Positions 7,000 to 28,612 are shown, counted from the stretch's first letter. The stretch is 28,613 nt of DNA from an uncultured archaeon (GCA_964510585.1 CAZECW010000079.1:1-28613); one strand, 5' to 3'. The notes: generated by a model from the sequence alone, not told the origin. Numbers and translations are program-made.

Positions 7000-8247
7000 T
7001 TATTTTGGGGGCAAGTGTAGTAGATATTCGCAGTATTCGTTTCCCTCTGCAACACACTTGGTTTCCTCGCATTTGCAGTTTGAAAGGGTGAAGGTTTCTG
7101 CCACTCCCTCTACTACGCCTTCTATGAGGGCTCCCATCTTTTTCCCAATACCTTTCAGGGGGGTGCATATGGGCGAATTGTAAGTTCTAAGTAGCAGGGT
7201 TCCCTTTTCTTTATTGTAGTCTTGAACAACTATCTCCACAAATCCTACTAGTGCAAAGATACGGGTGTTTAGGAGAATCGCCTCTTCCAAACTGGAAATT
7301 TTTAGTTTGCTTTGAATATTCTTTGAGATTGAATATGCTAACTCTTTGCCTAATTGGTGGAGTATGTTGGAGCCTGCCTCGTAACTGTTTTTGTCAATTA
7401 GTATTTTGGAAATTAGTTTGAATGTTTCTGCGGGGATAATTGTCATCGGGGTTCCCAGAAGGTCTATGACGCCTTCCTGTCTCATTTTTAGATTCTGTTT
7501 CAAACTCTCAAATTCCCTCATTATTTCGGTTCTCAAACTTATTCCGCTTGGAGCAACCTCGTATGGCACCATATCATTTAAATAATTTATAAGGGGGGAT
7601 TTGGACACTCTCAAATATTTTTGGAAAATGTTTTCTTGCTCCACGACTCTAAGGTCAATCACATAATCGAATGCGTGTTCCAGCTTGCTCAGTGTTTTTT
7701 CATCCATCATTCTCTTATTAAAAACGAAAATCAGCAGCCCATACTGGCTCAGCATTATTCTGGTTTTATAGATGAGGTTTATTATTTTATCGAGCTGCTG
7801 CCCCTTGGCCAAAAATATGTTGCTTAGAAATAATGCGCCGCTGCACATATTTTTTGAATCCTCAATGAGGGAAGTCATATTGTAAATGTAGGAGTCAAGA
7901 TACACAATGTCTCTAGGATTCTCCAAAACATACTTCTCCTCTGTTGGCAAACTGCCATAAAGATTTGTGAATCCATCCACAACATAAAGCCTTCCCTCCC
8001 TCTCGAAACTCTCCAGATTCCATCCAAAGTACTTAGACCAATCCCTAATCCTCACAGGCGGAAAGTCCAAATCAAATATGAATCCCCTATCCCCATCATT
8101 AATCCTATTATTAATGATCTGTAGGGGGAGAAGTTCACCCATCGATCCAGTCTCTGTCAGCAGTAGAACAGGGGCGTCCCTTATGAATCCGCCGCCCAGA
8201 AGAAGATCCAAGTCGTACATGCCGGAACCAACGAGATTCATAAACAA
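7000..8247 (-). CDS. KaiC/RAD55-like (RecA-superfamily) domain with a degenerate Walker A, fused to a C-terminal V4R domain
   Basis: N-terminal SGMYDLDLLLGGGF, GWNLESFEREGRLYVVD and DYVIDL...YLRVSK are KaiC-like. V4R signature: GKELA...NSPIC...GVVEG...CEETKCVAEGNEYCEY. The start may be ATG 8241 (AGGTG RBS upstream). Confidence 0.8.
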   Translation of the reverse strand: MFMNLVGSGMYDLDLLLGGGFIRDAPVLLLTETGSMGELLPLQIINNRINDGDRGFIFDLDFPPVRIRDWSKYFGWNLESFEREGRLYVVDGFTNLYGSLPTEEKYVLENPRDIVYLDSYIYNMTSLIEDSKNMCSGALFLSNIFLAKGQQLDKIINLIYKTRIMLSQYGLLIFVFNKRMMDEKTLSKLEHAFDYVIDLRVVEQENIFQKYLRVSKSPLINYLNDMVPYEVAPSGISLRTEIMREFESLKQNLKMRQEGVIDLLGTPMTIIPAETFKLISKILIDKNSYEAGSNILHQLGKELAYSISKNIQSKLKISSLEEAILLNTRIFALVGFVEIVVQDYNKEKGTLLLRTYNSPICTPLKGIGKKMGALIEGVVEGVAETFTLSNCKCEETKCVAEGNEYCEYLLHLPPK

Positions 8248-17347: not shown

Positions 17348-18160
17348 TTATCCTTTGGTAAGCACTTTTGTGTACATGGCGTAAACGAAGACAACCAATG
17401 CAATTATACCTATAATAATTTCAGTCGCTAGAATACTCATAAGGCCCACTACATATAGTACTGCGAATGCGTCAAGTATTATGTGAAGGAACACTGCTAT
17501 AAGGAAATATTTTAGTGTCTTGCCCCTAACAAGACCGTAACCAATTATTGCAGCTGTTGAAGCATGGAAAAGCACTGCCATCATCCTTTCATAGACTGTA
17601 ATTAAGGGAAGCCCAAATAGACTAGGTCCGAAAACAACAGATACCAATATGCTAATCTCTGAAATTAACTGTGGAAGAATGAAAAGGCCCATAAGCAAAC
17701 CTTCCATGCCCATCATAGTCATGGTTAAAAATATATCAAGAAGGATTAAGTCAATTGCCAAGGACAGTTGGTTAAGGAAGAAGTACGCTGCAGCTGAACC
17801 TAGCACCAGTATGGCTTCACCGCCTCCAAAACCTAAGCCGACCACTAAACCATAGAAGGCACCGTTCCCCTCACCAATTTTGGTTCTTATGAAGGGAATA
17901 ATTAGCACCAGTAGTTTAACTGCCTCCTCGATGAATCCCGTAGCTATGAGGTCAACACCGTAAAGAGCAATTCCGCCAAGAAACAGAATATAGATTTTCC
18001 TGAGATAGGCAAGGTAAAAAACCACAGCACCAAGCAGGAAAGCCGCAAAAAGAATACGATAGGGTTCCTCCGCAAATCTAAACTTCTTCACCAAAAACCA
18101 GATGACAAGAGGATAAAGCACAGAAAAAGCAATAGCAAACACTACTCCAATTCCATCCAC
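17348..18160 (-). CDS. PrsW family intramembrane metalloprotease
   Basis: Polytopic protein with GFIEEAVKL, GLGFGGGEAIL, LFHASTAAIIG and FLHIILD, matching the EE.K / GF...E / H / H motif order of the PrsW family. GTG start. Confidence 0.8.
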   Translation of the reverse strand: MDGIGVVFAIAFSVLYPLVIWFLVKKFRFAEEPYRILFAAFLLGAVVFYLAYLRKIYILFLGGIALYGVDLIATGFIEEAVKLLVLIIPFIRTKIGEGNGAFYGLVVGLGFGGGEAILVLGSAAAYFFLNQLSLAIDLILLDIFLTMTMMGMEGLLMGLFILPQLISEISILVSVVFGPSLFGLPLITVYERMMAVLFHASTAAIIGYGLVRGKTLKYFLIAVFLHIILDAFAVLYVVGLMSILATEIIIGIIALVVFVYAMYTKVLTKG

Positions 18161-18930
18161 TCAAAACCACCATTCAAAAATTTTATTTCAAACATGGGAT
18201 AACCTATGATATAAACCTTTTTAAACCATCAAAAATCCAAACAAACCCTACCACCACCCCTTGAGGCCCTCGAAGTCTAACCAGATAAAAAAGAAGCCTA
18301 AAAGACTGGGAATCAGACGTGTACCAAATTAAATAGGAAGTAACACCCAGAGACTTCCTATTTTCAGGAAGAACCAAAAACAGTTGCAAAATAAAAACAA
18401 ATTGAATTCATCACACACAGAGAGAAGCTCACACTAGAAGCACCAACATTTTTTCGGGCAGTATAGAAAAAATGTTAATTCCTGACTCGCAGTCTAGGCT
18501 ACGCTGGAGAAACTTTCCTACCACGCTAAAACAGCTAAAAATTCTCCCTCCCCCAACCTGCACTGAGCCACTAAAAACAGAAAGCGTCTACACCTTCTAT
18601 CACTAGTAACTTAAACTAGGAGAGTTAGGCTTCCTAAAAATTTGAACAGCATACAAATTATTATAAAAATCACGAAATCAAGTTTGAGGATCTACATCTC
18701 TAGTCTTAGAAAGGCATTTTAAGTCGCGTGTCACCAGCTTAGATGATTGTAAACAATGCCTGCGGTTATAAGTGGAAGGAACCTTGGGGGCGGGGTGAAT
18801 GAAGATTATACTAAGGGAACCACACTCTTCAGGGACACTTTAGTATAGGGGTTTTTGGGACTTCTTGTTTTGTTGGTGAAGTTAATAGTTAGTTTGAGCT
18901 TTGGAGGTGGGTGTGGGAGGAAAAATATTG

Positions 18931-18983
18931 ATGAAATGTTATCATGAATAACATTTACTTTTATGAAATGTTACCTTTAAATA
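18931..18983 (+). promoter_or_regulatory. Repeat-rich operator or recombination-like site plus TATA box upstream of the integrase
   Basis: Inverted repeat AAATGTTA-(7 nt)-TAACATTT at 18934-18956, direct repeat ATGAAATGTTA at 18931 and 18963, and TTTAAATA at 18976-18983. Confidence 0.5.
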
Positions 18984-19041
18984 GGGGATTCACTCATATA
19001 TTTTAGGCGTTCCAAAGGCACTTTTCCTAGGGGAAGAAGCC

Positions 19042-20073
19042 ATGAGAAGTAAAAAATATACCCTTAATAATAGTCAGCGTGAGCTCCTTAATAAATTTTT
19101 AAACGATAAAAGGGCGGAGACTCAAATTAAATCTGCCACACTCAAAAACTATGAGAAGTCACTGAGTATCCTTGCCTCCCAAGTCAAAAAGGATCTGGAC
19201 AAAGTTACATCCGCTGATCTTAAAAGGTTTTTTGGGGAACTCGAACGGATGAGGGAAGAGGGAAAAATTTCTGACGCCTCAATTAGACTGTACCGTGTCT
19301 GCATTCGCGCCTTCTACAAATGGCTGGATGGGAATAAGAAGAGTTCCCGGGTGGACTGGATAAAAGTATCCAGGGTTAGAACAAAAATAAAGTCAGAGGA
19401 CCTTCTTAGCGAGGAAGAAATTAGCAGGCTCATTAACAGTGCCAGAACTTTAAGAGACAGAGCACTACTAAGCGTATTGTTGGAATCTGGACTGAGGAGG
19501 GGGGAACTCTGGAGCTTGAATGTGGGCTCAGTAATTCCTGCAAATTATGGTTTTCTTCTCAGCGTGGAGGGAAAGACTGGAACCCGCACCCTACCCTTAA
19601 TCAGCAGTGCAGGAGTTCTTGGCGAGTATCTCTCCACGCTACCAAAAGTTAAGGATTCTCCTTTATGGCTTAGTTCTCGCGGTACACGCCTGTCACAGAT
19701 TTCCATTTGGAGAATTGTTAAAACTTGTGCCAAGAGGGCGGGGATAAGTAAGCGTACCTACGTGCACCTGATGAGACATATGAGAGCCACAGAGCTTTCA
19801 ACCAGGCTCTCAGACCAAACAATGAAGGGATTTTTCGGTTGGAAGCCCACAAGTAACATGCCAGGAGTCTACAGCCACATTTCAGGAAAAGAGGTGGTAC
19901 GCGAAATCCTGAGAGTCTCTGGAGTGAATCTAGATGAAAAAAATAATTCGTCTGGACTAGTGATTTGTCCTCGCTGTAAATTGGCTAATACATCAATTAA
20001 CAATTACTGTGTGCGCTGTGGTACGCCCCTTAAAGAAAGATTGGAAACCTGGCACGAGGAATTTTCGAAATAA
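19042..20073 (+). CDS. Tyrosine recombinase/integrase with a C-terminal Zn ribbon
   Basis: N-terminal core-binding helices (ATLKNYEKSL, SIRLYRVCIRAFYKWL). Catalytic set R (SGLRRGE), K (GKTG), H-x-x-R (HLMRH), W (FGW), Y (VYSH). C-terminal CPRC-x10-CVRC. Confidence 0.93.
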   Translation: MRSKKYTLNNSQRELLNKFLNDKRAETQIKSATLKNYEKSLSILASQVKKDLDKVTSADLKRFFGELERMREEGKISDASIRLYRVCIRAFYKWLDGNKKSSRVDWIKVSRVRTKIKSEDLLSEEEISRLINSARTLRDRALLSVLLESGLRRGELWSLNVGSVIPANYGFLLSVEGKTGTRTLPLISSAGVLGEYLSTLPKVKDSPLWLSSRGTRLSQISIWRIVKTCAKRAGISKRTYVHLMRHMRATELSTRLSDQTMKGFFGWKPTSNMPGVYSHISGKEVVREILRVSGVNLDEKNNSSGLVICPRCKLANTSINNYCVRCGTPLKERLETWHEEFSK

Positions 20074-20175
20074 ACTTGAGTGAAATAGGAGGAGAGAAGA
20101 ATCAATTGAACGGCTATAAATAAGGTATATATTATTGAATTACAAAGAATTTAGGGATAATTGGGATGGTGGTTC

Positions 20176-20838
20176 ATGTTGGAGCAGGAAGGAGTGGACA
20201 AGGTTTGGCTTTTTCAATTGTTTTTACAGATCGCGGGCAGAATTCAAAAAATTTTGGGAAAAGACTATATGCGCATAGCTCTATTCCACATGGGGAACTA
20301 TGTTAGCAGTAGAATTGGCGAGAAAACGCCTGACCTGGATTCTTTGGACAAATTTAGGGTCTACGTTTTACAAAGATTGGGGAAGGTTGGGGATCCCTGG
20401 AATTCTGTGCTTTACGGGATCCTTGAGGCTGATAGGGATTATAAAGCCTCCCTAAAAAGAGGGGAAAGCGGATTCGACAAAGTAGTCAGACTAATTTTAG
20501 AATCCAGCACTGTGGGAAAAGAGCCCATCAAGACTCAAAACATATACGAAGCTACCCAGAAATACTTTGACCTTCTCAAATCAGTTAGGCTTGACATTCT
20601 AGCCTCCATCCAAGAGGTTGACGCAGACACCATAAATGTGGTAATTAGTGACTGTTTATGTAAGGGTTGCTGCAGCGCAGTTCAGGCAGAGAAACTATTT
20701 AGAGACGATGGAACGCCTTTTTGCTGGGCTTTAAAAATAGGCTGCGCCGGAATTTATCAATCGTCTCACAGCCCCTCGGAATACAGGTTACTTGAATTTG
20801 ACAAGCCCCACTGTAGAGGAATAATTCTCAGAATCTGA
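20176..20838 (+). CDS. Hypothetical protein with a Cys-rich C-terminal domain (possibly V4R-like ligand/metal binding)
   Basis: The ORF track starts at 20161; ATG 20176 is an alternative start. The C-terminus has DCLCKGCC...FCWALKIGC...HCRG after a helical N-terminal region. Confidence 0.6.
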   Translation: MLEQEGVDKVWLFQLFLQIAGRIQKILGKDYMRIALFHMGNYVSSRIGEKTPDLDSLDKFRVYVLQRLGKVGDPWNSVLYGILEADRDYKASLKRGESGFDKVVRLILESSTVGKEPIKTQNIYEATQKYFDLLKSVRLDILASIQEVDADTINVVISDCLCKGCCSAVQAEKLFRDDGTPFCWALKIGCAGIYQSSHSPSEYRLLEFDKPHCRGIILRI

Positions 20839-21140: not shown

Positions 21141-23162
21141 TTATTTTTCTTGGATCTTATCTAGTTTTTGGATGAGGTCTAGAAGTTCTTTTTGAAGTTT
21201 TTGTTTCTCCTCAATATCTGTGGAGGTTATGGTGCCCTGCATTTCCTTCTTTTCTAATTCGTCTATTTTTGCCTTTACTTCGAATAGGCGGTTCTGGAGT
21301 TTCTCCATTTCTTTTGCGAATTTGGGTTTGGGCTGTGTTGATTGTGAGGGTGTTCTTTGTAGGAAAAGGCTGGCATAGATGTAGTCTTTCTGAACCTTGT
21401 CGTATCGTTCCTCAGTCTTGTACCTTTCATAAATGTATTTTTTGAAGTCTATCTCTCCTGAATCGTACTTGGACTTTAGCTTCTCCAGTTTTTCTCCATA
21501 CTCATTCACTTTCTTCTGAAGTTTTTGTCGGTTCTTGGAGAGTTTCATCACTTTTTGCATCTGAAGCTTGTGTACCTTGTCCAGGTTGATTATTGAGGCG
21601 AGAATAACTGGAAAGGCTTCTGCGAACTGGGATACTTCACCCTTCCATGTTTCAAGTTGTTTTCCGTATTCTTGCTCTATTCTTACAAGGAAATCGTGTA
21701 GCTTGCCCCTAATCCATATCTCCTCATCCAGTCCTATTGCTCCGGTGATGCAGGTTGCAGTGAGCAATTTGCTGTCCTCGCGTATAAATGTGCCAAAATC
21801 AGTTCCCAGCCTTTTCAGACCACCAACCCTCATCTCCTCTAGGAACGTTTTAATTGCAGACATGAAGCCTGAAATTAGTGTCACGTCCTGCTGCATAGAA
21901 ATGAAATCAAGGGACCACAGCGTGGCTCCTGTAGGGTTATGGTCAACAATAATGCTCTCCAAGTTTCTCATGGCATTTAGGGGAACTTTTCTCCTCCTAT
22001 AAGCTGTATAGCCCGAAGCGCCGGCAACAGAAACAGCACCAATTACACCAATGATTAGAAAGTTGCGGAATCGCTCCTGGTTCTGAACCAAAATTGTGAA
22101 AGCATAGATTTGGGAGAACCTCGCAATTAAAAGACTCATAAAAAGACTGGTGCCCTGAACATCGATGACCAAACTAAAAGTGACAGGGTCAAACCATGAG
22201 GAATTAAAAGAAAAGGACAAAACATCTGTGGAGCCCACATTACTAATATTACAAAAACCACTATTCTCACCCGCATCCTCCACATTAAAAATACCGTTAT
22301 CACTAATAACTTGTAAGCCTATCTGGGAAGGACGAGGATGCTCCGGAGTTCCATCCACACAGGCACTCACATATAATCTCATAGAAAAATCTACACTCAA
22401 AGGTTCCAAAATCAATGGTGAAATAGAGGTTAAGTTGTAAGCGGGCCCAAAATCTTCTTCCTCAGAATCATTGCGGTACATCCAGAATAACTCTTTGTAA
22501 GTTGAATCTTGTTTTAAGACTAGGAAAAAGGTGGCATTATCAGTCTGGCTCACATTTAAGGCAACAGTGCCTCCAAATATTGTTAAAATGTCTATTTTTT
22601 TCCATCCAATCTCCCTAATTACATCATACCCATTTATCCATTCAGTGATGCTTTGGCTTGGTTCAACTCTTTCCTCTGTGGGATTCCAGCTAGCGTTATA
22701 AATGGCGAAATCAATCTTTTTTGCGGGTACACCACCAATCAGGTATACGCTAATATTGTATAGGTAACATGTTTGGCTCAGGTTGAAGGACATAGCATAT
22801 GTTTGGCCCTTCAAAGATAAGCCATCGCTTGGAGTCTCCGCAGTACGTATAGTATAATTTCTAGCTTGAACATTTGATATGTTAAAAGTTACATTGTCAA
22901 CCTGTGAGAGGCTCGGCAACCTAATAGTTAATATGGTTCCAGTTGTTACACTGGGATACTCCACATGGTATAATTGGTCTTTGGAAATCAGAGAGTAATC
23001 CTGACAATTTTGGCCCGCAATCCAGTAAAAGTTTGAAAGCTGAGGTGGCATCAGAGCGTCGCGAAAACAAGTTAGGGGAAAAGCTAAGGCGCACACAAAA
23101 AGCAACGCAAAAGAGATTAAAACTATTTTTCTAGCCCAAAAGTTGTTCGCCCTAAAAGTCAA
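21141..23162 (-). CDS. Single-pass surface protein: glycosylated ectodomain, TM, cytoplasmic longin-like domain, C-terminal coiled coils
   Basis: N-terminal hydrophobic signal, many NxS/T sequons confined to the N-terminal half, and a TM (FLIIGVIGAVSVAGASGYTAY-RRRK). Longin-like pattern: LESIIVDHNPTGATLWSLDF...DVTLISGFMSAIKTFLEEM...KLHDFLVRIEQEY...WKGEVSQF. TTG start. Confidence 0.75.
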   Translation of the reverse strand: MTFRANNFWARKIVLISFALLFVCALAFPLTCFRDALMPPQLSNFYWIAGQNCQDYSLISKDQLYHVEYPSVTTGTILTIRLPSLSQVDNVTFNISNVQARNYTIRTAETPSDGLSLKGQTYAMSFNLSQTCYLYNISVYLIGGVPAKKIDFAIYNASWNPTEERVEPSQSITEWINGYDVIREIGWKKIDILTIFGGTVALNVSQTDNATFFLVLKQDSTYKELFWMYRNDSEEEDFGPAYNLTSISPLILEPLSVDFSMRLYVSACVDGTPEHPRPSQIGLQVISDNGIFNVEDAGENSGFCNISNVGSTDVLSFSFNSSWFDPVTFSLVIDVQGTSLFMSLLIARFSQIYAFTILVQNQERFRNFLIIGVIGAVSVAGASGYTAYRRRKVPLNAMRNLESIIVDHNPTGATLWSLDFISMQQDVTLISGFMSAIKTFLEEMRVGGLKRLGTDFGTFIREDSKLLTATCITGAIGLDEEIWIRGKLHDFLVRIEQEYGKQLETWKGEVSQFAEAFPVILASIINLDKVHKLQMQKVMKLSKNRQKLQKKVNEYGEKLEKLKSKYDSGEIDFKKYIYERYKTEERYDKVQKDYIYASLFLQRTPSQSTQPKPKFAKEMEKLQNRLFEVKAKIDELEKKEMQGTITSTDIEEKQKLQKELLDLIQKLDKIQEK

Positions 23163-23419
23163 TCCGCATACCCCGCCACGCCGTCGTTTTTACTATAAAT
23201 TAAACAAAAAAGCATTATAAAAGTTATCCAAAAGATGTACAAAATATCCGGGGAGATAAACTATGTTTTTTGGAACCCTTTACGTGGGAAAAACAAAATA
23301 AGGGCGTAAAAATTTTTAATGATGATTAGAAGGGAAAAATTGGGAAAAACTTTCTCCCCTCATCTCATACGCGGTTAAAAAAGAAAAGTGTTTGATGGGG
23401 ATGGGTTTTGCTGTCCTTT

Positions 23420-26400
23420 CTACTCTTCTGGTTCTTCCTCACTCTTTTTTGGGAATACGGATTTTTCTGTTTCCTCTGTTCCCTTTTCTTCCTCTGATGG
23501 TTCTTGTGGTTCGGGTTTTTGTAAATCTTCGGGTTCTGTTTTTTCTGTTTCTTCTTCTGCTGTTGTTTCTTCTGTTTCTTTTGGTTCTTCTAGTTGTTTT
23601 ATAGGTTTCTTTAGGGCTTCCCTTCTTTCTTCGTCTTCCTCAATCATTTGTAATACTTTGGCGCTGATTTCGCCTGGTACGCCTACTGTTTCGAGAAGTT
23701 TTTCGCGTTCTGTGGGTGTGGCTTTTTTCAATTCTAGGATTAATGCGTGTGCTTCGTCGGGATTCATTCCTGATTCAACTAGTAGGGGTGTTATTAATTG
23801 CTCCAATTCTACTGTGACGTAGCGTTCCTCTTTGGGTTCGATGCCGACAATAGCTAATTCCTGGCGGAGAACAGCTTCTACCACTTGGATTCTGGGTATG
23901 AGTTTAACTGTGATCTTCTCTCCGCGGCTGATTTTTGTTATAAGTTCGTCTATTCTTTTTATAATGGCAGGTATTCTAGCCCTCTTAATGTATGCATAGG
24001 TTGTGAAGGAGATTGTAGGTATAGCGACAGCTGAAACCACAAGTAGGAATGTGGTCTTTGGAATTCGAACATTAAGTAGGGGTATAAATATTGAGGTCTC
24101 CCCTACTGAGAGGAATATAGGGGATTGCTGTGTCTGGTAATTGTTGTAGCTGGCGGTAATTACTCCAAACAGGTTTCCTGGTGGAAGATTGTATGTTGGA
24201 ATGAAGGTTAAGTAGACTCCCGGCATAACTTCAACTAGAGTGAATATCATTGAGCCGAACTGCAATGTCACATTGGCACCAGTTAGTGGCGAGTGGGGAC
24301 CGGGTGTGTGGTAGTAGAAGATGATGGGGGTTAGAGGAACAGAGTTTTCAACCTGGATGTACGGTCCAAGGTATACTATTGCGGATGAGGCGATTGGTGG
24401 AATGAGAAAAGCATCTCCCAGAATGGTTGGAGCACCAAGAACACTGAGGATCGTGCTTTCCTCCTTAAACTGGTAGTTGGGTTTACTTGCTGAAATTTCA
24501 AGCGTGTAGCTAGTCGCAGTCAGAACAGTGGTGTTTATCTGAGCAGTATAGTTACCACTTCCAATATATGTCATAGAACCGGCATACTCGGTGCCCTTAA
24601 TACTCCAAGTGAGAACTGCGCCATCCACCGGCCCCTCGGGGGAGATTTGGGTATAAACAGCGTATATTGTTAGGTTCTCGCCCCAATAAATTTGGAACGT
24701 TAAGGAAGTTTCAAGCTTTGTCTGAACGTATTCGATCTCCAAGCTGATGGCGACTGAACCAGCAGTGTGGTTATCCCAGGAGAGACCAATTGTAACAGTG
24801 TAGCTACCAGCTGACAACTGTCTTAAGAATTCGTAGGAAATCTCATAGTTCCCACCGGTCTCATTCATAGTGCCAGAAAAGCCTCCGGGCGAGATGGTAA
24901 AGCTTAGAGGCGCTCCACTAACAGGCAGATTGTTATGTGTATCATTTAGGCGGGCTTGAATGCTGAAACTTGTATTCCAAGTTACAGTAATGTTTGTGCT
25001 GCTTGGCAATATTTCCAACGGAAGGTTATTCAACGGACTAATATACAGTGTTAAAGGCGTAGGATAAGTGTAATTGGCAGTTTCACTGGGTTCTGCAGTT
25101 ATCACAATGAAATAGTTCTGTCCACCATAAATTGTTCCGAAGTCGAATGTTATGCTCCATTTGCCAGTAGTTGAAGGATCCTTCGTCATTTTTGCAGGTC
25201 CGTAGAGGACATGTTCGGTGGTGTTTTTCAACGTGAAGTTCATCCAGTTTGCATCTATGCCTTGACCATTAGGATGCTTTATCCAAAACACGAAGGTAAC
25301 GCTGTCATTCCAGTAAATGTTAGTGAAGAAAGTACCGTTACTACATTCAAGACGCGGAGTAACTTGACCTATCGACCTATTCAGCGTTGCCAGGAAGAAC
25401 TTGGAGCTACTCATATCCACTAAGCGACCCAAACCACTAAGTGTCCCCTCAGGTTTGCTCTCGTTTACGTTCCACAGGGAGAAGTTTTCAGGATTAGGTG
25501 GATAACTGTAGGTGGTGTTAATAGTAATGTTTACTTCCTCGTTGGCGTAAACATAAAGGGTTATTTGTGCTAAGTACTGGTCTACTGATTGGTCAGAAAT
25601 GTTGTAGTCTGAAAGGCTGGGGTTCGTGTAGTTCACTGAAACTTGTGCCTTCTGCACATAGGTCCCATAAAAGTCCTGAACCAGTAAATATAGTTTGGTA
25701 ACATTCATCTCAATGTCAAAAGTCGAGCTATTAACCCCGGGAACCCATGCATAATCCCACCGCCAAACATAAGTCCTATAGGGAGTGGTGAGATTAGCCT
25801 CAATCCAGTACCCATCGGTTTTCTCAAAAAGTTGGAAGTTGCACCTCCCACTGGAGTCTGTAGACCCGGAAGCATTCACACCGTCCCACGGCGTATTATA
25901 AATTGTGACGGTAACATTTTCCGTGAGAGGATTGTCAAATGGGTCAGTAACTGTGATGTTAAGATCGAAGAAAACCTTTTCCTGAGTAGCGTTAACACTG
26001 ACGGTGAGGGCGTGGTTTCTCTGCATCATTTCTGCAAAGGTTTCAAACTCGTCTATCCCGTTAGCTCCGTTCCACATGTAGTTTGCAAACTTTTCATAGA
26101 TTAAGCTCCCAACGTCCACAGCAGTACTTGGCCACTGTCTATCCCAGTACTCATAGTATGTGTAAGAGGGCTGGTGTACTAGATAGGACCATCCAGAAGT
26201 ACTAACCACACTGTACACGGGACTTATTAGATCCACTGTTCCCATTGCTTCTTTATCGCTGGTGTCGTAGAATGCAAACCATAACGCTTTCCCAATATCT
26301 CTATTTTGGAACTGAGTCCACCAGTTGGTATAAGTGATTTTTTGTCCCGCTTCTGTCTTGTAGGTTAAGGTGGGCATGATTTTGTCATTAAAGACCCACT

Positions 26401-27304
26401 CATTGTTCCTGTATAGGGCGCTTCCATATGCTTGGTAAAACGTGGAGTTTGTTTCACAGATCCATCCCCACTCGAAAAATCTGTAGGTTATGTTGGTTGT
26501 GGCGTTAACCGTACCTCCCAGTCTTGCCAGTGTTGTGTATGTAACAAATAGGGGGCCATCGCTTAGTATTCCATAAGATAGTGGAGGATACTTTGAGGTA
26601 GAATCATAGTTGGGATAGTCGGGGTTCCAGTGGAAACCATAGCTTGTAGCGGGTTGTGATGTCCACCATGTTCCAGATATTTTGTTGTAGCTGTTGTATA
26701 GTTTTCCACCCTTGGCGGTGAGTGAGCAGTAGGCAAGATAGTTTGATGTATTAAATATGTAGTTGTTGCCATCGGTGGTGTAGTTTACGGTGTCTGTGTA
26801 GCTGGGCATCCAGACTGGGGCTGAATCATTATAGTAAATGTAATAGGTGGCTGTGCTACTTGCTGTGACGTTAACGTAAAACGTTATGGTTGCGGACTGT
26901 AAATAGTTTGTTTGGGGGTAGAGTGTGGTGTTCCAGACCTGGCATGGTATGGGGCCAGTCATCCAGCCTCCAGTCTCATTGTAGCGGTACTGTGGAACCA
27001 GTATTGAGCCATTATAGCACGTGCCTGGCTCAAAGGTTAAATATACGTCAACCAGATTATTTATTCGATTAATACCGTTTGTCTCTGTAAAGTTGACCTG
27101 CGTTCTATAACGGAATGAAGTATTCCACCATGAGGGCTCATAAGGGCTTTTTGTAGATATGGGCTGAGAATATGCAGAGGAGGGAAAAGTGTAGGGTGAA
27201 CCAAGAAGAGGCGGCGTTATGAACAGTGGGATCACCGTGGCTAGTAGTAGAGCGAGAAGAATGACTGTTGCGGTAAGGGGAAGAAGTCGCCTTCTCAGAA
27301 ACAT
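23420..27304 (-). CDS. Large cell-surface glycoprotein: DUF2341-like N-terminal domain, Ig-like beta-sandwich repeats, one C-terminal TM, cytoplasmic domain with acidic tail
   Basis: GGAGG RBS and a hydrophobic N-terminus. WWNTSFRYRTQVNF...VDVYLTF...ITFYVNV...TYYIYY resembles DUF2341. Thr/Tyr/Asn-rich repeats (TITVTWN...RLNDTHNNLPVSGA; IYWGENLTIYAVY...PVDGA), dozens of sequons, TM (FLLVVSAVAIPTISFTTYAYI-KRAR), and a Glu/Pro/Thr-rich tail. Confidence 0.8.
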   Translation of the reverse strand: MFLRRRLLPLTATVILLALLLATVIPLFITPPLLGSPYTFPSSAYSQPISTKSPYEPSWWNTSFRYRTQVNFTETNGINRINNLVDVYLTFEPGTCYNGSILVPQYRYNETGGWMTGPIPCQVWNTTLYPQTNYLQSATITFYVNVTASSTATYYIYYNDSAPVWMPSYTDTVNYTTDGNNYIFNTSNYLAYCSLTAKGGKLYNSYNKISGTWWTSQPATSYGFHWNPDYPNYDSTSKYPPLSYGILSDGPLFVTYTTLARLGGTVNATTNITYRFFEWGWICETNSTFYQAYGSALYRNNEWVFNDKIMPTLTYKTEAGQKITYTNWWTQFQNRDIGKALWFAFYDTSDKEAMGTVDLISPVYSVVSTSGWSYLVHQPSYTYYEYWDRQWPSTAVDVGSLIYEKFANYMWNGANGIDEFETFAEMMQRNHALTVSVNATQEKVFFDLNITVTDPFDNPLTENVTVTIYNTPWDGVNASGSTDSSGRCNFQLFEKTDGYWIEANLTTPYRTYVWRWDYAWVPGVNSSTFDIEMNVTKLYLLVQDFYGTYVQKAQVSVNYTNPSLSDYNISDQSVDQYLAQITLYVYANEEVNITINTTYSYPPNPENFSLWNVNESKPEGTLSGLGRLVDMSSSKFFLATLNRSIGQVTPRLECSNGTFFTNIYWNDSVTFVFWIKHPNGQGIDANWMNFTLKNTTEHVLYGPAKMTKDPSTTGKWSITFDFGTIYGGQNYFIVITAEPSETANYTYPTPLTLYISPLNNLPLEILPSSTNITVTWNTSFSIQARLNDTHNNLPVSGAPLSFTISPGGFSGTMNETGGNYEISYEFLRQLSAGSYTVTIGLSWDNHTAGSVAISLEIEYVQTKLETSLTFQIYWGENLTIYAVYTQISPEGPVDGAVLTWSIKGTEYAGSMTYIGSGNYTAQINTTVLTATSYTLEISASKPNYQFKEESTILSVLGAPTILGDAFLIPPIASSAIVYLGPYIQVENSVPLTPIIFYYHTPGPHSPLTGANVTLQFGSMIFTLVEVMPGVYLTFIPTYNLPPGNLFGVITASYNNYQTQQSPIFLSVGETSIFIPLLNVRIPKTTFLLVVSAVAIPTISFTTYAYIKRARIPAIIKRIDELITKISRGEKITVKLIPRIQVVEAVLRQELAIVGIEPKEERYVTVELEQLITPLLVESGMNPDEAHALILELKKATPTEREKLLETVGVPGEISAKVLQMIEEDEERREALKKPIKQLEEPKETEETTAEEETEKTEPEDLQKPEPQEPSEEEKGTEETEKSVFPKKSEEEPEE

Positions 27305-27853
27305 TAAACAGCTTCCTCCAAACAGTGTTTGGGAACACTTTTGTGTAATCGCTTTCCACTAAATTAAAACAACTATTTACATTACTTAATTATATAGTCT
27401 GAAGGCGAATATAAGTCTTACTTATGAGCTTTTTGACCTCGTATTAGCTATGTGGTTTGCCTTTTAATCGGCGTAGAGTATGCCTAAATTACCTGTTTTT
27501 TAGGCTTCAAAATAGGGAAGGAGTCCTAAATAAGAGCTCCCTTTTTTTGAGACGACCAAACATTTGGCTACACAGAACCACATAGTGGATACAATGTCTC
27601 GAACTTTTGGAGAGCAGTATTTCTTAGGTTTATTTGGTTTTACTTAATAAGGGGAAACGCGTTTTTGAGTTCTAAAAGCGCGCTTAAAACAAGAGGTGGA
27701 ACAAAACAAATTATGGGGGATCGGCTCTGCGGATATGTGAGAGTTTCATTTCACTTCTATTCCATAAAGATTTTCCATGATTATTAAAGTCTAGTTCATT
27801 TTTATGCCTCAAAAATAGTGGGTTGAAAAAAGTGGGGGGAGGGGATAGAGATT

Positions 27854-28612
27854 TTATTTTTGAAGTTTGTCCAGTTTTTCAATGAGTTTCATTAATTCCT
27901 TGTAAAGCTTGTCTCTGCGTTTAATGTCCTGTGAGGTTATGGTGCCATCCAATTCTTTTCTGCGTAGTTCCTCTATTTCCATTCGAATTTTAAGAAATCT
28001 GTCCTGGATTTTTTCCACTTCTCTTGTAACTTCTGGTGTGGGCTTCCCCGCTTCCAGTCTTGGTGGTACTCTTGAGAGGCAGAGGCTTGTGTGAATGTAC
28101 TCCTTCTGAACCTCGTCATATTTTGGTTCAATCTTGGCTCTTGCAGTCTCATACTTTGACTCACTAATTTTTCCCGACTCCGCCTGCTGAGTCAAATCTT
28201 CAAGCTGGGAACCAAGCTTGTTAAGTTCCATTTGAAGTTTCTCTTTGCTCCTTTGCAGCTTTGAGATTCTTTTCCGAACCAACCTCTCAGCCTTATCCAA
28301 ATCAATCACCGAAGCAAGAATTAAGGGAAGCGACTCCCTGAAAGTTTGAACGTCACCCCTCCAATTTTGGAGCAGGTCCAAGTGTTGCGACTCAGCTTCG
28401 GCTAAGAAGCTCCGTAGCTTCCTTCTAATCCACTCCTCCTCTTGAGGGGTGTTGCCACAAGTAATGCAGGTTGCCGTTAAAAAGTCTCCGTCTTCCCTTA
28501 TGAAGGTACCAAGCTCAGTTTCCAGTTTTCTTAGACCACCCTTTTGCATCTCACCCATAAATGACTTAACCGCCGACATAAAACCAGAAACCAGCGTCAC
28601 ATCCTGCTCCAT
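27854..28612 (-). CDS. Partial (5' end outside window) paralog of the 673-aa longin/coiled-coil protein
   Basis: The frame is open to the window edge. QDVTLVSGFMSAVKSFMGEM..GGLRKL..E.GTFIRED...LTATCIT is collinear with the 21141..23162 product through to the C-terminal KLDKLQK. Confidence 0.8.
   Translation of the reverse strand: MEQDVTLVSGFMSAVKSFMGEMQKGGLRKLETELGTFIREDGDFLTATCITCGNTPQEEEWIRRKLRSFLAEAESQHLDLLQNWRGDVQTFRESLPLILASVIDLDKAERLVRKRISKLQRSKEKLQMELNKLGSQLEDLTQQAESGKISESKYETARAKIEPKYDEVQKEYIHTSLCLSRVPPRLEAGKPTPEVTREVEKIQDRFLKIRMEIEELRRKELDGTITSQDIKRRDKLYKELMKLIEKLDKLQK

Follow-up and report, generated by a model that had tools for sequence, protein, structure and literature searches.

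In Asgard archaea, small GTPases resembling those of eukaryotes and longin/roadblock proteins number in the dozens. Elsewhere, longin or roadblock folds are held at membranes in more than one way. In Ragulator (LAMTOR1-5)-Rag and in SR-alpha(SRX)-SR-beta of the signal recognition particle (SRP) receptor, the tether is lipidated LAMTOR1 or the transmembrane (TM) helix of SR-beta, a GTPase is bound and there is no ectodomain. Longin R-SNAREs (Sec22, Ykt6, VAMP7) combine longin, helical region and anchor in one polypeptide, in the order longin-SNARE-TM. Longin/roadblock dimers act as GTPase platforms (PMC10933270). For the Asgard archaea themselves, the publications consulted cover longins as well as fusion proteins that link them to GTPases, TRAPPC3 or two-component domains (PMC10933270 among the sources) and make no mention of a TM-anchored form, and an early review of Lokiarchaeum reported longins without a trace of a coiled-coil or SNARE domain (PMC4917890). 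Here we describe a family in which a longin-fold domain very probably follows directly on the TM helix of a predicted surface glycoprotein. It was found on a 28,613-nt stretch of DNA (GCA_964510585.1, CAZECW010000079.1), hereafter the window, which is the entire contig C79 of a 3.78 Mb, 96% complete assembly. The source organism is a hot-spring Asgard archaeon of the Jordarchaeia/Freyarchaeia, and the window DNA was present in seven sequencing runs, every one a hot-spring metagenome of DNA, with no RNA run among those listed. Two genes of the family, gene A and gene C, lie on either side of a third gene encoding a giant surface protein (Table 1).

The sequence-only reading of this locus had proposed that genes A and C share a C-terminal module and that a longin-like domain directly follows the TM helix; both proposals held. 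The two proteins align collinearly over 251 residues (423-673 of gene A) with 49% identity (E 2e-81). Residues 385-548 of gene A, modelled with AlphaFold2 (AF2) from an alignment with 88 relatives, gave a predicted local distance difference test (pLDDT) value of 86.2 and a predicted template modelling (pTM) score of 0.82. An initial helix is followed in this model by the order b-b-a-b-b-b-a-a, with strands at 401-408, 414-419, 451-454, 457-463 and 467-473 and helices at 432-447, 478-504 and 511-524, which form a five-stranded antiparallel sheet of longin topology (b1-b2-a1-b3-b4-b5-a2-a3). Compared by VIA-align with 48,161 PDB representatives, the domain matched longins at all of ranks 1-35 (Z 8.2-10.9, 106-138 aligned residues). 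AP mu and sigma, SRX (Z 10.8 and 9.3-9.6), Sec22 (10.6), VAMP7 (10.2-10.4), synbindin, Fuzzy, Mon1-Ccz1, the TRAPP core and 8yqg from Lokiarchaeota (9.4) were among the best matches, and Roadblock/MglB scored below all 35 longins (Z 6.9-7.3). Foldseek searches of PDB and Swiss-Prot returned a probability of 1.00 to AP sigma, zeta-COP, Mon1, VAMP7 and Sec22b.

The domain is homologous to the soluble Asgard longins (asCOG Roadblock/longin families, Fuz_longin_1 PF19036, 8yqg), with which it has the predicted fold in common. HHalign aligned it to seven soluble longin proteins of the same genome with a probability of 99.8% (E 1.5e-27), and the motifs D..L.SGF.SA..F..E, the invariant residues at the start of helix a1, and W.G are common to TM-anchored and soluble longins. 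One of the soluble proteins, encoded on contig C187, passes the Pfam cut-off for Fuz_longin_1 (30.4 versus 26.1 bits); weaker matches, below cut-off, link other soluble homologues to Longin, Sybindin or Clat_adaptor_s and a protein on C113, likewise soluble but outside the HHalign alignment, to Robl_LC7. In contrast to these soluble relatives, the domain described here is fixed by a TM helix directly upstream, behind a glycosylated ectodomain of 330-770 aa.

Several results count against the assignment. No Pfam longin model was matched by the gene A protein, by its domain alone or by any of 89 TM-anchored members, and a profile search of PDB sequences with the domain gave chance-level matches only, so the longin fold rests on prediction. 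The full-length AF2 model of gene A, built with 28 close homologues, was poor for the tail (pLDDT below 50 across 332-525; mean 58.7), and only the ectodomain core and the terminal helices were usable. An ESM Atlas search with the longin part returned scores below 0.9 throughout, including one Fuz_longin_1-bearing cluster at 0.82 that serves as a lead only. The missing Pfam match would also suit a generic small alpha/beta sensor of the PAS, GAF or roadblock kind that binds a cytoplasmic small molecule, and longins are part of a broader alpha/beta superfamily, some domains of which bind ligands (PMC4917890). We give this alternative hardly any credence, in view of the uniformly longin character of the 35 best structural matches, with Roadblock lower, and of the strong homology to proteins passing Fuz_longin_1. 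We are confident of the architecture and of the longin fold of the tail.

Since the contig end cuts gene C, only its last part lies in the window, but the rest could be recovered. The ends of C79 (28472..28612) and C21 (16147..16287) overlap as exact reverse complements over 141 nt within the longin-coding part, and the assembly probably broke there because this conserved stretch is common to the paralogs. The joined gene C encodes 1061 aa, the first 809 residues at C21:13721..16285. Database protein P0040 (939 aa) is 100% identical to residues 123-1061 and crosses the junction, which confirms the join. In the complete protein, some 720 ectodomain residues and a single TM helix precede a tail like that of gene A. 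The gene C module corresponds to residues 650-939 of P0040. The TTG codon of gene A is its first in-frame start, and database protein P0004 is 99% identical to the gene A protein and of equal length.

Table 1. Features of the receptor locus in the window, with the basis of each call where one is given.
Feature	Residues	Position	Strand	Description	Basis
Gene A		21141..23162	-	673 aa, TTG start	ORF (open reading frame) call
Gene A signal peptide or anchor	1-31	23070..23162	-	hydrophobic core 13-31	Kyte-Doolittle 19-residue window score 2.61
Gene A ectodomain	32-365	22068..23069	-	sequon-rich; beta-sandwich core about 100-270, then membrane-proximal amphipathic stretch	
Gene A TM helix	366-388	21999..22067	-	followed by R-R-R-K	hydrophobicity 1.73 (family mean 1.83)
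Gene A juxtamembrane motif, helix and predicted longin-fold domain	389-525	21588..21998	-		AF2, VIA-align, Foldseek, HHalign
Gene A four helices in two predicted hairpins	526-673	21144..21587	-	stop codon 21141..21143	AF2
Giant gene		23420..27304	-	1294 aa	ORF call
Giant ectodomain	26-1085	24050..27229	-	40 sequons; Ig-like/CarboxypepD_reg-like repeats	
Giant TM helix	1086-1104	23993..24049	-	followed by K-R-A-R-I-P	hydrophobicity 1.77
Giant predicted cytoplasmic tail	1105-1294	23423..23992	-	conserved helical region of about 130 aa, then acidic low-complexity end	
Gene C		27854..28612	-	252 aa in window, contig end cuts gene	ORF call
Gene C longin part in window		28304..28612	-	corresponds to gene A 423-525	alignment to gene A
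Gene C helical-hairpin region		27857..28303	-	stop codon 27854..27856	collinear with gene A 526-673

TM helices and topology were called computationally from hydropathy, charge and N-glycosylation sequons (N-X-S/T), and these point to the type-I arrangement that had been proposed, an ectodomain and one TM helix ahead of the conserved tail. All 12 sequons of gene A lie before residue 321 and its last 285 residues are free of them; the outside/inside counts are 12/0 for gene A, 40/0 for the giant and 39/0 for gene C. Composition-preserving shuffles of the ectodomains gave 3.7 +/- 1.7, 16.6 +/- 3.6 and 14.5 +/- 3.3 sequons, respectively, and the enrichment is therefore 2.4-3.2-fold in all three genes (z about 5-7). 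Across 28 full-length homologues, sequon density is 4.1 per 100 aa outside versus 0.14 inside. Gene A has another, less hydrophobic stretch (about 329-353) ahead of the TM helix, a small doubt that weighs against the proposed topology. In the 28 homologues its mean Kyte-Doolittle value is 1.28 versus 1.83 for the TM helix, the net charge is +4.9 in the 15 residues after the TM helix versus 0 between the two stretches, and a sequon lies between them in 5/28. Because the first stretch is weaker, the charge is asymmetric and a sequon can lie between the stretches, a single pass with the C-terminus inside the cell is favoured. The N-terminal signal, the sequons, the single TM helix and the positive charge on the inner side are together those expected of a type-I single-pass N-glycosylated surface protein.

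The two sides of the membrane appear to evolve at different rates. Mean pairwise identity among the 28 homologues is 33% in the ectodomain versus 73% in the longin domain, with 44% in the TM helix and 58% in the C-terminal helices, and the juxtamembrane motif [KR]-R-R-x-[IV]-P-x-N-A-[LM] is conserved in the gene A family. The first 300 or so ectodomain residues are only distantly related among the copies on C79, C21, C27 and C191 (26-30% identity). In gene A the core of the ectodomain is predicted by AF2 (pLDDT 75-92) and Foldseek to be a jelly-roll or lectin-like beta-sandwich. Its Foldseek matches are to generic beta-sandwiches only (phage receptor-binding proteins, the Cwp84 lectin-like domain, DUF4082 and F5/8C), so they point to no specific ligand. 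By combining a variable glycosylated ectodomain with one membrane pass and a conserved part in the cytoplasm, the proteins recall the logic of eukaryotic type-I adhesion receptors such as integrins, to which no relation of sequence or fold is claimed; unlike theirs, the tail here is itself a folded adaptor-type domain.

The region behind the longin domain had been read as long coiled coils. It is indeed helical, but AF2 predicts four helices paired as two hairpins (527-568/573-602 and 613-642/647-672; pLDDT 72-86), with turns at S-G-E-I-D-F and G-T-I-T-S. Pfam gave sub-threshold matches only, to SHOCT (PF09851; 14.9 versus 27 bits) and EAD11 (PF19964; 18.5 versus 26), and ESM Atlas nothing usable for this region. 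An internal duplication of the two hairpins was considered and not accepted (HHalign probability 46% over 23 columns). The order TM-longin-helices had further been described as the reverse of that in longin R-SNAREs. The order stands, with the TM helix (366-388) preceding the longin domain (401-524), but the likeness goes no further than domain order: no Synaptobrevin/SNARE Pfam match was found in the gene A protein at E<=1, the longin adjoins the membrane, and the bulk of the protein is placed outside the cell. The gene A tail is thus not a reversed SNARE. In Ragulator and the SRP receptor, too, a longin or roadblock fold is held at the membrane, and they would be the functional models should the platform explanation given below be right, but here the TM helix is in the longin protein itself, an ectodomain is present and the GTPase partner is only putative.

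Besides A and C, the genome has three more genes with the full module, which makes five. They lie on C191 (677 aa), C27 (954 aa) and C125 (334 aa, with almost no ectodomain), and each stands alone. Close homologues are all hypothetical proteins, labelled Freyarchaeota, Jordarchaeum, Jordarchaeaceae or loosely "Lokiarchaeia". A profile search over 1.84 billion representatives gave 28 full-module matches (E<1e-30) and 194 matches at E<=1e-3, the weaker ones covering the longin part only. In most of 60 tabulated remote matches, the longin part directly follows a strong TM helix and lies close to the end of a sequon-rich protein; these proteins reach 2,774 aa and come from Lokiarchaeota, L. ossiferum, Helarchaeota and Promethearchaeota. 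The ectodomains ahead of such longins reach about 2,700 aa in Lokiarchaeia and Helarchaeota. Across 201 genomes of the phylum, the longin part alone was found in 89 (E<=1e-8) and the whole module only in Jordarchaeia, at 1-9 copies per genome: it occurred in 5/5 other genomes of the window's own family (3-9 matches each) and in 5/5 of a sister family of the same order (1-3). Both this and the representative search confine the double-hairpin part to Jordarchaeia. In a maximum-likelihood tree of the modules, gene A falls in one clade (A-type, support 98/99) and gene C in another (C-type, 99/97). As the best explanation, we regard them as two old paralog types, a short A-type and a long C-type, within a branch that is specific to Jordarchaeia and belongs to a family spread across the Asgard archaea. 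No description of a longin anchored by a TM helix behind a surface ectodomain was found in the literature, the coverage of which was incomplete and gives no proof of novelty. New here are the branch in Jordarchaeia and its double-hairpin tail, the pairing of A- and C-types, the completed gene C and the negative result on GTPase linkage given below.

The best explanation of these data as a whole, which we put forward tentatively, is a family of type-I glycoproteins with a membrane-anchored longin platform. A fast-evolving N-glycosylated beta-sandwich ectodomain would face outward, and the TM helix and basic juxtamembrane motif would hold the conserved longin domain against the inner face of the membrane, followed in the Jordarchaeia branch by the two hairpins. 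A cytoplasmic partner would thereby be stationed by the tail beneath one particular surface protein. Judging from the well-studied longin and roadblock platforms, this partner would most likely be a small Ras-superfamily GTPase or another longin/roadblock protein. A docking platform is the best single explanation because the membrane-proximal longin domain is under strong purifying selection and is homologous to soluble longins, one of them fused to a GTPase, and because a platform role is known for the fold. We infer the cytoplasmic location of the tail, the identity of its partner, and whether it signals from outside to inside or merely anchors.

A function as a platform for GTPases in particular is possible rather than probable. 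At least 23 Ras-family matches in the genome provide candidate partners. The only direct link between the domain and a GTPase in this genome is a 339-aa fusion protein (C118:13150..14166, minus strand), in which an N-terminal longin of the same subfamily is joined to a Ras/Rab-like GTPase (Pfam Ras, 154.6 bits); coupling of the receptors to small GTPases is suggested by this fusion together with the role of longins elsewhere. The genomic context speaks against such coupling. C79, C191, C125 and C21 have no Ras-family match, C27 has two that are over 15 kb away from its paralog, and the scanned neighbours of the paralogs include no Roadblock or Ras Pfam family. Elsewhere in the family the longin domain is followed by TPR/MIT-like helices, by a KaiC ATPase or by nothing, so the output need not be uniform. 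With no linked GTPase gene and with variable downstream modules, room is left for a structural or sorting role. The soluble C187 protein (79456..81507, plus strand; 684 aa) has an N-terminal longin and, after it, about 550 residues with long helical regions, and could possibly be a cytoplasmic relative or partner of the receptor tails.

A stronger form of the GTPase proposal, which we consider unlikely, makes the TM-longin tail a direct receptor-to-small-GTPase device. By analogy with Mon1-Ccz1 or TRAPPC1-C4, pairs such as A-type with C-type would form a longin dimer under the membrane and, when the ectodomain binds, recruit and perhaps activate or inactivate a Ras-, Rab-, Arf- or Rag-like GTPase. 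Co-folding of the A and C modules scored 0.00, which counts neither for nor against their binding.

Absence of a GTPase gene nearby, together with the many paralogs with divergent ectodomains, would equally be expected of a structural coat anchor. The proteins would then be units of an irregular Asgard surface coat that has no S-layer, and longin and hairpins would only oligomerise laterally or tie the protein to a sub-membrane scaffold or actin, with no GTPase or signalling involved. Cultured Lokiarchaeia have no S-layer and do have 'complex surface proteins' (PMC9834061), the profilin core fold is common with roadblock/longin (PMC10933270), and the different but equally conserved tail of the giant protein would fit several tail types that plug into one scaffold. 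Yet 73% identity over a globular domain of 137 aa and the invariant start of helix a1 exceed the needs of a simple anchor, and soluble homologues with the same motif exist, including the Ras-type GTPase fusion. A coat anchor is therefore, in our judgement, somewhat unlikely, and we retain the longin docking platform as our preferred explanation.

The giant protein lying between the two longin receptors has a conserved tail of its own, which is not a longin. Its helical region of about 130 aa has 29 homologues, all Jordarchaeia-type, with 72% mean column identity, 23 invariant positions and an initial R-x-x-I-P that adjoins the TM helix; no Pfam family covers it. The R-rich, [IV]-P juxtamembrane motif resembles that of the longin receptors. 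A paralog of the tail is encoded at C174:1784..2797 of the same genome. Freyarchaeum deiterrae has all three gene types next to one another and co-oriented: C-type (965 aa), A-type (681 aa) and a giant homologue of 1422 aa (34% identity overall, with a far more conserved tail). Such neighbours might be the cargo of a built-in sorting adaptor, whose longin tail, like sigma- or mu-adaptin or SRX, would read short motifs or helices presented by the tails of other membrane proteins, for instance that of the giant, or by a targeting GTPase, and thereby direct surface proteins to, or concentrate them in, membrane domains, protrusions or vesicles. The best structural matches, the N-terminal longins of AP mu/sigma, SRX and Sec22, agree with this, as does the position of the giant, a protein with a conserved helical tail, whose gene separates A from C in the window and adjoins the A-C pair in F. 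deiterrae. However, longin subfamilies differ by less than 1 Z unit, which makes their rank non-discriminating, three giant paralogs in other genomes have no longin receptor nearby, and at a syntenic locus in GCA_041862095 two A-type genes occur without a giant. A sorting adaptor is thus quite improbable.

It had also been suggested that the three genes form one surface complex. Their co-orientation and the F. deiterrae trio agree with this, and the A- and C-type clades are old and stay neighbours, as do paralogous longin heterodimers such as Mon1-Ccz1 or TRAPPC1-C4. But the gene order is C-giant-A in the window and C-A-giant in F. deiterrae, the locus without a giant, the lone giants and the lone receptors on C191, C27 and C125 show that the genes also occur apart, and gaps of 549 nt (C-giant) and 257 nt (giant-A), with T-runs behind every stop codon and AT-rich sequence ahead of every start, suggest that A, giant and C are separately transcribed. 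That they are co-expressed subunits of one obligate complex is decidedly improbable.

Other paralogs are flanked by LOR, PadR, HepT and Fe-S genes. Near the copies on C191 and C21 lie two ORFs of 132 aa, unrelated to each other and without a Pfam family. On C191 (16417..18177), a pair of LURP-one-related (LOR/scramblase-like) genes with a small family-less ORF between them precedes the paralog, and this neighbourhood is conserved ahead of the F. deiterrae orthologue. Directly downstream of gene A (17348..20838), the window contains genes for a YhfC-type intramembrane protease and a tyrosine recombinase (Phage_integrase, 60 bits) and a Cys-rich ORF, in place of the DUF7130 and PAC2 genes that directly follow the receptor/giant cluster in two related genomes. 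Further away (7000..8247, minus strand), a 415-aa KaiC-like RecA-family ATPase carries a C-terminal V4R domain, which is related to TRAPPC3/Bet3 (PMC10933270). The remote family member P0083 has the arrangement TM-longin-KaiC, and KaiC-type ATPases thus recur beside both TRAPP-like folds. Loci from three Lokiarchaeia genomes preserve one gene order, cation P-type ATPase, ATP-grasp_5, giant TM-longin protein; two of the three continue with RadA and Roadblock/LC7, and one has an Arf/Ras GTPase two genes upstream.

The predicted position of a longin fold right beneath the plasma membrane, with a large and fast-diverging surface glycoprotein in front of it, extends to many Asgard lineages, including the cultured L. 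ossiferum, whose member WP_371805894.1 has 2640 aa. The longin receptors are candidates for the irregular "complex surface proteins" seen by cryo-tomography, and the family offers concrete baits for partners of Asgard GTPases. If the receptor-to-GTPase device were real, it would be a prokaryotic counterpart, possibly a forerunner, of the Ragulator and SRP receptor platforms, and would explain how Asgard GTPases without lipid anchors find membranes. If the tail docks a GTPase, it would provide a simple link from outside to inside, made from parts later used in eukaryotic trafficking. If it docks none, the family would still be a major unnamed component of the Asgard cell envelope.

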